NCBI GenBank assembly: GCA_000004695.1
Contig: CM000155.2
Coordinates: 2,656,001-2,720,000, forward strand
Origin: Dictyostelium discoideum
Lineage: Eukaryota
Direction of reading: 5' to 3'
DNA: 64,000 nucleotides
Below the pieces are notes generated by a model. The model did not search any database and had not been told where the DNA came from. It saw only the letters and a program-made list of their open reading frames with translations. Of the stretch, positions 2,870 through 8,745 are shown one piece after another; position 1 is the stretch's first letter; every line of letters begins with the position of its first letter. Made by a program: the position numbers and the translations under genes.

Positions 2870-4323
2870 TCACTTCCATTTAGATATTTGAACCAATCTA
2901 TTTATTAATCTTAAATATTGTAAATCTTTTTCTAAATCTTTTCTTATTTCTAAATCATGATAATTCATTATTTTAAAAACATTACATGGTTGAACTAAAA
3001 TATATATATATATATAATTAGAATATTGATATCTTTTAATTTGAAATAATTATAATTATTATACATACCAGGTAATTCATAATTAGAAGTGACTAAACCT
3101 GCATATTCGGATGTTGAAACTTGATCAGAAAAAGTGATAGCTAAAATGGGAACAATACCCAAAGCAATTGATTCTTTCATTCTTTTTTCCATTTTTCTCA
3201 TTGTTTCAACACTGGTGAAACTTTTTATTGATACAACAAATAAGAATACATTAACTGAAAATTCTGGTTTAGGAATACTGCCAATATTAAATTTTTCATT
3301 AATTGCTAAATTATTATAAACTCTACCCTGAACTTTATATTTTAATTCTATATCACTATCACATAATCCCCACTATTTATAAAAAAAAAAAAAACCCATT
3401 GATTAGTTTTATTATAATTAAATAATTAAACAATTATAATAATAATTAACTTACAGTATCTACGAATGAAATATCAAAACCACTTAAAAATGAATTTGAA
3501 AATGGATCATTTGAATAATTTGAATCGATAATACTTTTAATTGATCTATAAGTGATACGATTAGTTGAGAAATAAGTGCTACCACCATGTTCTTCAGAGA
3601 AATTTTGTTGAATTGTAGAAGATAAATTGAAAAGATTAATTAAACCCATAATTAAAGAAGTTTTACCTGAAGAAGCACAACCTTCCAAACCAATGGTTAA
3701 ACGTTTATTTGGTTTTAAATCACCTAAATACCAACTGATATTTGGATACATATTACTGAAATAATTAACACCAATATCCAAAGTAAATTGTACATTTATA
3801 TTAAACATTGGCTGAAATGAACAACCTAAATTTCGTTGAAATTCATTAAAAGTTATTAATTGTTTATAATATGTACCTGTTGTTGAAGTTGTTGATGCAA
3901 TGATTGCTGCTGCTGCTGCTGATGTTATTGATGATGATGATGATGATGTTGTTGTTGTTGTAGTCATTGTTGAAGTATTTGTAATTGATGGATGAAGACT
4001 TAGTGTATTAGGTATTTCAATTGATTGAGAACCATAAAATTTATTTGTAAATATAATTTTCGTACCTTTTACAACATTATTTTGAATATCTTTTGGTGAA
4101 ACTATAACCATAATCTCCAAATTATCCTTAATTGGTGATAATGTTTGACTTGAAATTAAAAATGCTTCAATTCTAATTGGTAAATTATAAACTTCTCTAA
4201 AATGAATTTTAAATTGATAAAGTTTATTATTCTCCTGATGATTTGTTAATGAAATATTTGAATTAGAAGAGGATGATATCGGTATTGGTTGTGGTAATAT
4301 ATTTAAACTATTACTATTATTAC

Positions 4324-4380
<57 letters not shown>

Positions 4381-5389
4381 TAATACTATTATTATTTGTA
4401 CATTTTGTATTTTTATTATTTAAATTTGCTGATAATAATTCATTTGAAAAATTATTAAATGGTTTAATATCTTTACTTGAAATATTTTCATTTTCTTCTT
4501 TATTTTCTTCTTTATTTTCTTCTTTATTTTCTTCATTTTCTTCATCATCAGTATCTTCATCATTATCATTATCATTATTATTATTACTATTAATTAATAC
4601 ATTTTGATTTATTGAATAAATTGTTTTTAAAGTTGATTTTATATTATCAATAATATCATTTTTAAATGAGAGGGTAGTTTCTTTAAAAGGTTCATTATTA
4701 TTTTTATCTTTAATAATATTTAAAAGTTGATAATTATCTTTAAGTATTGATAAATGTTGTTTATTTGATTGATTATAAATTTGATCGATTGAGTAGTCTG
4801 TTATTTTAAAGATTGGTGGTATTGTTGGAGGTGATTGAGTGGTTGAATGTTTGGTAATGAGTGAATTGATTAATTGAACTTTATTATCTAATAAAGATTT
4901 GGTTTTTAAATATAGTTCTTCATTATCTGTAAATAGGGTTTCTAAAGTTCTTTTAATATCAAGCTCTAAAATTTGTAAAATTTGATGTAACTGTTTGAAT
5001 TTATCCGATAATTGATTCATATTACTTTGATGATTTAATTTAATTTTTTGGAATTGTTGTTCAACAATTTGTATTTTTTTTTTACTTTTTTCTTTAAATC
5101 TTTGAGATTTGTTATAAGTTTCATTTAAATCTTTTAATGTATTTTGTATCATTGATTTTGAAATTAATGAAAATGAGTGACCTTTATGTCCAATACTACA
5201 GATACAAACTAAACATACAGGAATTTTACAATCTTCACAAAAACTACAAATTTCACTATCACTATGTTCAAAACATTTTATATCAAATATTGTTGTTGGT
5301 ATTATTGTTGTTGTTGTGGTTGATGATGATGTTGTTGTAGTGGTAGTTGTCATCGTTTGTAATGGTGATTTTTGTGAATCATTTTCCAT
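2870..5389 (-). CDS. TRIM-like protein with a B-box zinc finger, a coiled coil and a poly-N linker, followed by a C-terminal dispersed P-loop GTPase-like domain. Three exons.
   Basis: Exons about 5389..3455, 3372..3069 and 2994..2870; donors GTAAGT and GTATGT, acceptors ATAAATAG and TTTTAG. Exon 2 shares the frame of track ORF 2995..3201. The first ATG is at 5389 (MENDSQKSPLQ...). B-box-like spacing: C-x2-H-x8-C-x2-C-x4-C-x2-C-x5-H-x2-H (CFEHSDSEICSFCEDCKIPVCLVCICSIGHKGH). P-loop G1 is LEGCASSGKTSLI, G3-like is FVDTVWG, and the protein ends ...RLVQISKWK*. Confidence 0.6.
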
Positions 5390-5842: not shown

Positions 5843-8745
5843 TTAGGCATTTGTTGTGTTATTAGTATTATTAATTGAGAAAGTTAATAAAGTTTTCATT
5901 GAATTTAAATATTCTTGTAATTCAGTGACTGATTTAATTGAATTTTCAGAAACATTTTTGGCAATTGATTGAGTATTTAAAGTTTCAAGAATAGTTGATT
6001 TGTTATTATCATCTTCAGTTAAAGATAATTTTGATAATGATTTTTCATTAATAATATTTGATAAATTTAAAGAATCATCAGAAAGTTTTTTAACTAATGT
6101 TTCTAAATCTGTGCGAATAGTAGTATGATATTCTTCTTTCTTCTTTGCTCTTTTACCTGGTAATGCAGAGTTCACTAATAATGCTATGAATGAGAACCAA
6201 GTGATTGGTTCAATAAAACTTGATACAACCATACGACTTGATCTAGATAAACTATTCAAACTATTACCTAAAACAACAGATTCTCTAATATTATCACTTA
6301 AAACTTTAACAATTTCAGTAATTTCATTATTAATTAATTCTAATAATTCTTTAACTTGTTTTAATTTCTCTTCATTAACTAAATATTTTATAAAAAATAA
6401 TAAAAATGAATTAATAATTATAAAAATTTTAATAATGATAATAATAATAATAATTTAAATACATTACATTCTTTTAATAAATTTAAAATTAAATTTAATA
6501 ATTTAAAATTATTTAAAGTTGAAATACGAGTTAAATTATCAATTTTATGAGAATTGATAGAATTTAATTTAGTTGTAGTTGATTCAAGTGAAATTAATAA
6601 TTGATTAAATTGATTTAAATCAATTGGTGATTGAGTTGAAATTAAATATAGAATATTTAAAATTTGTCTACGATAGGTTAATTGTAAAAGAAGAGTTGAT
6701 TTCTCTGTATTTTCAAAATAGAGTGAAGTGATACCTTGAATTTGATTTTCAACTTGTTTGATAGAGTCGGAATTAGAGGTGGTAGTTGGATTAAATTTAT
6801 CAAAGATAGTATTATCATGATTGAATGAAAGGGCATTCAATACTTCATTTGAACAATCGAAATTAATTGGATCAGTACTTGAGATTTGAGATTTACAAAT
6901 TTCAACGAATTGAGAGGCAGTGAAATTAGCATTTGGTAATTTTTTAAAACGAATTAACATGAAATTAAATAATTGTCTTTCAGTTTCGTAAACTGATTTT
7001 TGGAAAGAGTTGGCAACTTTAACTTGGAATTTTTGAATCTCTGTGATTTTACTGTAACAACCATTTTGATAACAAGCAGCAACATAATCAGCTGTCGATT
7101 CATTTTCATTGTAGAATTTAGCAGACTTTTCAAAAGCGTTAATTGCATTGGAGAAACAAGTTGGTTCACGAATAAATTGATCAGCGACTAAATGACCGAG
7201 TGTATCATATTGAATATTTTTAATGTTTAAAATTTTGAAATGATTACTTGCCAATTGATGTGCGCCCAATTCAAAGTATAATGAAAGAAGGTAAAGATTG
7301 AATTGATAGTTTTTGGTTGAAATGGAATGAGCAAACTCCAAGATAGCGGCACTTTCTAAAAGTAATGAAACTTGTTTGGTTTTTTCATATTGATCCATTA
7401 AGAGGAAATGACAAATTAAAATTAAATCATCACCTGGATAACGTTCAGATTCAATTGCCAATGGGAATTTCTTTGTATTGTATTGATATTCTTCAAGGAT
7501 TTCTTTAATGATTTTGATTGATTCTTCAATACTCATTTCCAATTGTAAACCTAAAACTCTGGATAACTTGTGATAATTTGAAAGTTGGCTAATATGATTA
7601 GCTTCATCTTTATCCAATGATACTAATTTATAAATACGATCCATAATTTCTTTACGTTGTTCAATGGATTTTTTAGTTTCAATAAATTGTAAATATTTCT
7701 TTAAATCTGAATAGAGTACTGGTTTTGTACCAAATTTAGTGAAATAATTTAAAATTAACTCTATGAATTTATTAAAGACTGGACCATCGATGTTTGCAGC
7801 AGGATTACCATTGGCGGTGGTGGTAGTTGTCAATAATCTATAGTAAATTTCAATCTCTGCTAATAATGGACCACGTAATAAATGTTTACTGGTTTGTTGT
7901 GATTGAATATTTTGAATGAATTGTTTGGCATCGTCAATCTTTGAGATATCATTGAGTGACCAAATGTTATCGAAATAACCCATATAGCATGACCATTCAT
8001 CCGGTTCATATTTTGTAAGGATTTCAGAGTAGTTATTGGCTGCTTCTTGATGATTACCCAACTTTTGATTAAGGTCACCTAAAATCTTTAAACGTTCAGT
8101 TGCAACATTATAAAGTTCACCCAATTTGCCTTTAATAAGGTTAAGATGTTCACTGGTTTTACCTTGAATATCCAATACGGTTTCATACATATAAAGATGT
8201 TCACTTGTTTTGATTTTACCTTCTTCTACTAATTTCTCTGCTAACTTTTGTGATAAACCAATAAAGAGTTGGTTTGAAGGGTTGTCATGAACCATCGATA
8301 AAATGGTCATTAAATACCAAAGACTATGTTGATGAGATGGGAAATTCTTTTGTAAATCTAGTATGACTTGTTGTTGTTGTTTATAATCTCTAACCTTTGC
8401 ATATGCTAAAAATAAACCTTCTGCTAGATTTTCGTTCTTTGGATAGGCTTTAACTGATGCTTCGTAAACTTTGGTCATTTTGTATCCTTGTTGAACTGAT
8501 TTATAAAAGTAATTTAAATTTGATAATAAAGTTTCATTATAGTGTCCAATGAATGCAACTTCATCTGCACATTTAATTGCCTCTTCATTTTCACCCAATT
8601 TAATTAATGTAATTGCTTTTAAAACTTTGACAATATTTGTATTTTCATCCTTCTTTTTTGTTAAAAGTGCATTACATAATTTTAATGATTGTTTATTATT
8701 ACCAGAATCTAAAGCTGAATAAATTCCACTTAATTTATTACTCAT
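5843..8745 (-). CDS. naa25: N-alpha-acetyltransferase 25, the NatB auxiliary subunit (Mdm20/NAA25 homologue). Two exons.
   Basis: Exon 1 runs 8745..6468 (track ORF 6418..8745) and exon 2 runs 6378..5843 (same frame as track ORF 5843..6259). Intron 6379..6467 has donor GTAATG and acceptor ATATTTAG. The N-terminus (SGIYSALDSGNNKQSLKLCNALLTKKKDENTNIVKVLKAITLIKLGENEEAIKCADEV...) aligns with the TPR-like N-terminus of NAA25/MDM20. Confidence 0.8.

Follow-up and report, generated by a model that had tools for sequence, protein, structure and literature searches.

We analyzed a 64,000-nucleotide stretch of Dictyostelium discoideum DNA (hereafter, "the window"; GenBank assembly GCA_000004695.1, contig CM000155.2, positions 2,656,001 to 2,720,000 of the forward strand) and focus here on a minus-strand gene at window positions 2870-5389. 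Its 787-residue product has five parts: a B-box type 2 zinc finger (B-box2), a coiled coil, an acidic linker rich in asparagine (poly-N), a beta-rich module, and a P-loop GTPase domain ("G domain"). An earlier reading made from the letters alone (hereafter, the sequence-only reading) had proposed a B-box and coiled coil fused to a GTPase-like domain and split over three exons. We assign a probability of roughly 65% to the interpretation that this is a real three-exon gene whose RING-less B-box and coiled coil, together with the beta module and a G domain resembling that of IFI44 and IFI44L, make up a scaffold presenting a nucleotide switch.

Gene model and protein architecture

Three minus-strand segments (5389-3455, 3372-3069, and 2994-2870; 2364 nucleotides together) join in one frame, from the first ATG at 5389 to a TGA at 2872-2870. 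Exon 1 (3455-5389) encodes residues 1-645, which hold the B-box, the coiled coil, the linker, the beta module, and the N-terminal half of the G domain, which breaks off within the G3 motif after D644-T645. Exon 2 (3069-3372) supplies residues 646-746 plus one nucleotide, with W646-G647 of G3, the switch II region, and the G4-like strand, and exon 3 (2870-2994) supplies residues 747-787 and the stop, with a C-terminal NY..E..KD motif and the last G-domain helix. Intron 1 (3373-3454; 82 nucleotides, GTAAGT..AG, 11% GC, phase 0) and intron 2 (2995-3068; 74 nucleotides, GTATGT..AG, 9.5% GC, phase 1) are both canonical GT..AG and AT-rich, with stops in every frame; the exons have 19-28% GC by comparison. 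The window as a whole is strongly AT-rich (15-30% GC), and its poly-N coding tracts and short GTAAGT..AG introns are the signature of a dictyostelid genome. When the 787-residue product was searched against the window with tblastn, exon-sized blocks covered residues 1-321 and 382-784 (the low-complexity linker was masked), and no second copy of the gene was found in the window.

Conservation extends across both junctions. The D. citrinum ortholog (KAN0022118.1, 777 residues, annotated "hypothetical") is continuous over both, with 82% identity over the C-terminal 400 residues and 86% over the G-domain alignment that includes exons 2 and 3. The Pellita homolog P0010, which derives from a TRINITY transcriptome, is likewise uninterrupted at the equivalent positions, as are the other homologs. 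Intron 1 cuts a DxxG motif, invariant in the protein family described below, between D644-T645 and W646-G647, and splicing restores it; the second splice restores a conserved LPV(E/Q)xxNxF stretch. Exon 3 codes for Y758 and D770, which are invariant in our alignment of 20 family members, and for the nearly invariant K769. Given the continuity in D. citrinum, the restored DxxG, the invariant residues of exon 3, and the transcriptome-derived Pellita homolog, the three-exon model is very likely correct. The exons, introns, and junctions coincide exactly with those proposed from the letters alone, where it had also been remarked that open reading frame (ORF) calls show only fragments of the gene; public ORF calls on raw contigs are likewise unspliced genomic fragments.

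The zinc finger occupies residues 37-74 (5168-5281). Its ligand spacing, C39-x2-H42-x8-C51-x2-C54-x4-C59-x2-C62-x5-H68-x2-H71, fits the B-box2 consensus C-x2-H-x7-9-C-x2-[CDHE]-x4-C-x2-C-x3-6-H-x2-4-[CH] exactly over residues 39-71, and all ten Cys and His residues of the region are kept in the D. citrinum ortholog. The top Pfam match is zf-B_box, which scores 20.7 bits when the whole protein is searched and 23.8 bits (E 5e-5) when the segment is taken alone. When residues 29-267 were compared with PDB sequences by phmmer, TRIM-type B-box chains (from TRIM5, TRIM72, TRIM63, TRIM54, MID1, XNF7, and TIF1beta) made up most of the matches, including all of the top nine. The best were the TRIM5alpha B-box2/coiled-coil constructs 5w9a and 4tn3 (E 0.0015-0.004), together with TRIM72, and their alignments span the zinc finger plus about 100 helical residues. 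TRIM5alpha and TRIM72 share with the window protein a B-box2 that leads directly into a long, heptad-periodic helix, and 5w9a, 4tn3, and 7xv2 align over both elements. The coiled coil itself (residues ~79-161; 4907-5155) aligns with those of TRIM5alpha and TRIM72, and hydrophobic periodicity at heptad positions a and d exceeds the 99th percentile of composition-matched shuffles at residues 79-161 only, by a simple and rather crude home-made register score.

We found no RING in the protein: no Cys or His precedes residue 39 in a Thr/Ser-rich leader, and no RING-type Pfam model matches. The D. citrinum ortholog shares the start Met, and the region upstream of the gene is A-rich and intergenic. 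Judged by these matches, the N-terminus is the B-box2/coiled-coil part of a tripartite motif, as the sequence-only reading had described it from the zinc-finger spacing, the predicted coiled coil that follows, and the lack of a RING. Strictly speaking, the protein does not qualify as a TRIM protein. TRIM proteins have a RING, whereas the window protein has neither RING nor B-box1 and thus no predicted E3 activity, and its C-terminal domain is not the PRY-SPRY, NHL, or COS of TRIM proteins. The full tripartite motif has been reported as metazoan-specific, with protist B-boxes mentioned only as unpublished observations (PMC2533329).

Downstream of the coiled coil comes a low-complexity linker (residues ~266-380; 4250-4594) of acidic D/E/N/K repeats with an N18 run, which is long and disordered. 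A poly-N linker followed by a GTPase domain had been foreseen, and both are there, but they do not follow each other directly: a conserved beta-rich module that had gone unnoticed (residues ~388-560; 3710-4228) lies between them. This module emerged from the family alignment, in which it matches the segment that separates VWA domain and P-loop in every VWA-bearing paralog and displays about seven alternating hydrophobic strands. A profile of the module retrieved no relatives from PDB sequences or Pfam; two of its last strands are present in an AlphaFold2 model. Within the module sits a Ser/Thr/Ala-rich, low-complexity insertion (residues 466-506; 3872-3994) whose length and sequence are different in the D. 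citrinum ortholog and which no VWA paralog has.

The GTPase domain and its kinship with IFI44 and IFI44L

The G domain (residues ~561-787; 2873-3709) spans both introns. Its G1 or Walker A motif, G570-C-A-S-S-G-K-T577 (3659-3682), is the one picked out beforehand as GCASSGKTS, and its two Gly and its Lys are invariant in the family. The G3 motif, D644-T-W-G647, is split by intron 1 (3367-3460). A DxxG-like motif had been called at this point and is indeed present, but not as the FVDTVWG given then; the spliced product reads FVDTWG. A Leu follows (residues 644-648), and the catalytic Gln is absent as in IFI44; a Leu after DxxG has been described for both IFI44 and IFI44L (bioRxiv 10.1101/2020.02.24.963900). 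Farther on, T725-F-S-D728 (3124-3135) occupies the G4 position and aligns with the TKVD of IFI44-like proteins. The human IFI44 query has THVD there, so that neither it nor the window protein has the G4 Lys, and the IFI44 G4 has itself been described as incomplete (bioRxiv 10.1101/2020.02.24.963900). At the C-terminus, a signature common to IFI44 (NYxSExELDxxxD) lies at 2924-2965: N757-Y758, E762, and K769-D770 align with the IFI44 motif, and the Tyr and Asp are invariant in both family alignments. None of the 20 aligned family members departs from the two Walker A Gly and the Lys, the Thr of switch I, or the Asp and Gly of DxxG, and such constancy of the phosphate and Mg motifs across deep amoebozoan divergences points to selection on phosphate and Mg binding.

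The alpha/beta fold and strand order of the domain match those of solved TRAFAC-class P-loop GTPases, with GIMAP2, Toc34, and GIMAP7 as the best Foldseek matches and nearest solved structures by that measure. A viral fold library yielded generic GTPases only, with no sign of a giant-virus origin. At the sequence level, the isolated C-terminal domain reached Pfam MMR_HSR1 at E 0.15 only, and neither a phmmer search of the lone G domain against the PDB nor an NCBIfam search returned a match. The sequence-only reading had proposed a search for a GTPase fold beyond the poly-N linker as a way to refute it; such matches were obtained, both by Foldseek and as septin PDB chains by family profile.

A resemblance to IFI44 was tested next. 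The query segment is IFI44 (98% identical to gorilla IFI44), and it retrieved 316 proteins named IFI44 or IFI44L by NCBI or UniRef; our conclusions rest on these retrieved, source-named proteins. Scored at a database size equal to that of the search of all PDB sequences, the amoebozoan family profile gave IFI44L proteins as much as 58.9 bits (E 4e-15); in the PDB search, septins lead (septin-9, 32.9 bits, E 3.7e-7, aligned from G1 to the G4 strand). The IFI44L alignment runs over profile positions 29-269 and takes in the C-terminal helix, short of which all the septin alignments end. A profile-profile comparison with hhalign, in which the IFI44 side comprised 17 proteins of the IFI44/IFI44L family, with sources ranging from mammals to a bivalve, gave 99.1% probability (E 9e-19, 210 columns). 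In the reverse direction, an IFI44 profile found the family members P0018 at 8.5e-11 and P0023 (Acytostelium) at 2.5e-6; its best match among solved structures had only E 0.007, and the PDB sequence search contained no IFI44-family chain. The signatures common to the amoebozoan family and IFI44 are GKSSxxN, the switch-I Thr, DxxGL, a Gly after switch II, HxVxFV, the G4 position, and NY..E..D. In fuller form, the common G1 reads GxxGxGKSSxxN, and GCASSGKT of the window protein fits GxxxxGK[ST].

On these profile comparisons, the window G domain is a diverged homolog of the IFI44/IFI44L GTPase domain within the TRAFAC class, at a sequence identity of only ~20%. It had been suggested that TFSD marks a non-Ras G4 of the GBP/IRG kind; the position stands, but the closest family is IFI44/IFI44L. 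We rejected the GBP and IRG families, as IRG chains in the PDB match only at profile positions 10-72, up to and including the P-loop; Pfam IIGP is matched, below cutoff, by one of the 20 family members, and no GBP match was found. The IFI44/IFI44L proteins and the amoebozoan family are also alike in that neither has a dedicated Pfam model, both giving only marginal MMR_HSR1, AIG1, and Septin matches; the AIG1 and Septin models are not reached by the window protein itself.

Outside the G domain, the two groups differ. Vertebrate IFI44 and IFI44L have an N-terminal TLDc domain, for which the window protein has no Pfam match (TLDc is also missing from several animal IFI44-like proteins, e.g., P0119 and P0146), whereas the window protein has a B-box and coiled coil (VWA in its paralogs) followed by the beta-rich module, which IFI44 lacks. 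IFI44 and IFI44L are induced by interferon, whereas the window organism is an amoebozoan without an interferon system.

The amoebozoan family

The family is small: an exhaustive HMMER search yielded 27 relatives, led by P0001 at 1e-198, with P0002 (DDB_G0269482) at 4e-46. All named members are Amoebozoa and are annotated "hypothetical" or "VWFA domain-containing"; they come from Dictyostelium discoideum, D. citrinum, D. purpureum, and D. dimigraforme and from Tieghemostelium, Cavenderia, Acytostelium, Synstelium, Pellita, and Pelomyxa, and the remainder are from environmental contigs. The beta module and the G domain form the constant core of the family. Most members have a VWA domain at the N-terminus; a B-box and coiled coil occur in just two of the scanned members, the window gene and its D. 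citrinum ortholog. DDB_G0269482, a D. discoideum VWA protein, is a true paralog that shares the beta module and G domain (E 4e-46, 36% identity), with the N-terminal VWA standing in place of the B-box and coiled coil. The N-terminal module is exchangeable around a constant beta/G core.

Many VWA paralogs differ from the window protein in carrying extra C-terminal tails, such as ubiquitin-like segments, zinc-ribbon arrays, or a kinase. The dictyostelid paralogs end in a ubiquitin-like segment (a weak TUG-UBL1 match), and P0010, P0014, P0023, and P0026 have CxxC...CxxC zinc-ribbon arrays after the G domain, with sub-threshold Pfam Zn_ribbon matches in P0010 and P0014. The 1698-residue Pelomyxa schiedti protein P0019 (KAH3731695.1) is built still more elaborately: its VWA/beta/G core is followed by an extended helical stretch, another VWA, and a protein kinase domain. 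A 368-residue environmental protein from JGI/Logan (P0028) contains a G domain of the IFI44-like type (GPTGSGKSSFIN ... DTRG ... TRFD ... NY) and a C-terminal tail of ubiquitin-like appearance. It was the sole and weak match when the family profile was used in a word-indexed search. That kind of search returned nothing for the C-terminal 400 residues of the window protein, even though its collection includes the 82%-identical D. citrinum ortholog; low-complexity words may have crowded the candidates, and its negatives on Dictyostelium-like proteins are unreliable.

Some family genes have adjacent or near-adjacent locus tags (P0030 and P0003 in D. discoideum, ACTFIR_004735/004736; P0024 and P0016 in Cavenderia, DFA_00462/00464), which suggests tandem duplication in both organisms. 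Truncated paralogs also occur (P0007, 283 residues; P0009, 239 residues), and adjacent tags together with truncated paralogs are typical of fast-evolving gene families.

[quoted passage not shown] We found no other case of such a scaffold carrying a C-terminal GTPase as in the window protein. The two differ in that TRIM23 possesses a RING and its G domain is of the ARF family, whereas the window protein lacks a RING and its G domain is IFI44-like, and the likeness is architectural (convergent) rather than a matter of orthology. The combination of B-box2, coiled coil, and IFI44-like GTPase is a new architecture built from known kinds of domain, the beta module excepted.

Alternative readings, proposed role, and neighboring genes

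Several observations weigh against the interpretation given at the outset. Support for both splices is comparative only. The zf-B_box score falls marginally short of the Pfam gathering score of 24.1 bits, and the PDB E-values for the B-box and coiled coil are modest (1e-3). The IFI44 profile misses the window protein itself, and the link to IFI44 is transitive, through the family profile and less diverged members. TFSD has no G4 Lys, and several family members have lost the Asp, which makes guanine specificity uncertain. For IFI44 itself, deletion of G1 did not abolish restriction of respiratory syncytial virus (bioRxiv 10.1101/2020.02.24.963900), and this leaves the role of the nucleotide site in the reference family unclear. 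As for function, the defense role proposed below is drawn from analogy only, and the literature on DDB_G0269482, or on IFI44 together with Dictyostelium or Amoebozoa, yielded no expression or phenotype data on the family.

The locus may also be read in other ways. If the gene model were wrong, such that the transcript extends no further than exon 1 or the downstream pieces have decayed, the G domain would be truncated and non-functional. The comparative nature of the splice support leaves room for this, as does the fact that public contig ORF calls give unspliced fragments only (P0006, P0013, P0151); however, the splice signals are canonical, GC falls to ~10% within the introns, splicing preserves the frame and restores an invariant DxxG, exons 2 and 3 hold family-invariant residues within the alignment that is 86% identical to D. 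citrinum, and homologs, including the transcriptome-derived one from Pellita, are unbroken at the equivalent positions. We therefore regard a faulty model as very improbable. A complete G domain might still be a degenerate pseudo-GTPase, with the protein acting as a scaffold or adaptor through its B-box/coiled coil and beta module and with no nucleotide switch. The Lys-less G4, with its Asp substituted in many family members, would agree with this, as would the E of 0.15 against MMR_HSR1 and the dispensability of the IFI44 G1 for one antiviral read-out, but the Gly/Gly/Lys of Walker A, the Thr of switch I, and both Asp and Gly of DxxG have not changed in any of the 20 aligned members, and we consider such degeneracy unlikely.

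That the C-terminal domain is a septin- or paraseptin-like cytoskeletal GTPase and not an IFI44 relative, which would make the protein a filament or scaffold component with a housekeeping role, seems a little less likely again. Septins (septin-9, -3, -12, and -7) are the nearest solved structures by sequence profile, sub-threshold Pfam Septin matches occur in 6 of the 20 family members, and the best Foldseek matches are to the related GIMAP and Toc GTPases. Against this, IFI44L scores well above septin-9 (58.9 versus 32.9 bits), only its alignment extends through the C-terminal NY..E..D helix, and hhalign links the family to IFI44 at 99.1%; no family member attains the 26.2-bit Pfam Septin cutoff (best E 1.7e-5), and the window protein has no match to that model. 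We rejected septin membership on these lower and partial scores, which end at the G4 strand and stay below the Pfam cutoff. The two readings are partly nested, as IFI44 may itself sit within a wider septin/AIG1-like assemblage.

Returning to the scaffold with a nucleotide switch, we can sketch how it might work by analogy with better-known proteins. The B-box and coiled coil would form an elongated homodimer or a higher-order assembly like that of TRIM5alpha, which would carry at least two flexibly tethered G domains. Nucleotide-dependent dimerization is what activates septin, GIMAP, and Toc GTPases, and the G domain, with its intact G1, switch-I Thr, and DxxG followed by Leu, could bind nucleotide and act as a similar dimerization-dependent switch. 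E3 ligase activity is not expected, since there is no RING. The biological role may lie in cell-autonomous defense or a stress response, an idea that draws on the analogy to IFI44, GIMAP, IRG, and TRIM proteins and on the tandem duplication and domain shuffling seen in the family.

Few human genes respond to interferon as strongly as IFI44 and IFI44L, whose biochemical mechanism is poorly understood. Their function has been called poorly characterized (bioRxiv 10.1101/2020.02.24.963900). We found no report of an IFI44-type G domain in Amoebozoa in the searchable literature, and a recognizable relative there provides an evolutionary anchor outside animals: the IFI44/IFI44L-type module appears to be older than animals, and the residues that are invariant in the family help to separate the core mechanism from lineage-specific features. 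A bolder extension, which we think rather unlikely, is that the IFI44-type GTPase is an ancient, pre-interferon defense module dating at least to the common ancestor of Amoebozoa and animals and fitted with swappable N-terminal domains for assembly or sensing, among which the window gene would be a RING-less sensor that forms TRIM5alpha-like lattices and has a GTPase switch, not ubiquitination, as its read-out. Dictyostelium is haploid and genetically tractable for functional tests, and if this extension were true, it would offer a tractable system for IFI44/IFI44L G-domain function. The locus also shows a portion of the TRIM module occurring in a protist, where its partner is another effector, in a parallel to TRIM23, and gives a testable domain assignment to proteins now labeled "hypothetical."

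Directly upstream of the gene, the window contains an intron-less 775-residue ORF on the minus strand (6418-8745) for a NatB/MDM20 (NAA25-like) N-acetyltransferase auxiliary subunit (Pfam PF09797), and the protein is identical to a 775-residue NatB/MDM20 ORF on a Logan contig from run SRR26869268. Between the two genes is a 138-residue minus-strand ORF (5843-6259), which we ruled out as a missing RING exon because it has no Cys-rich motif. At the corresponding position (2535-2924) of Logan contig L001, a 129-residue gene without a Pfam match is called.

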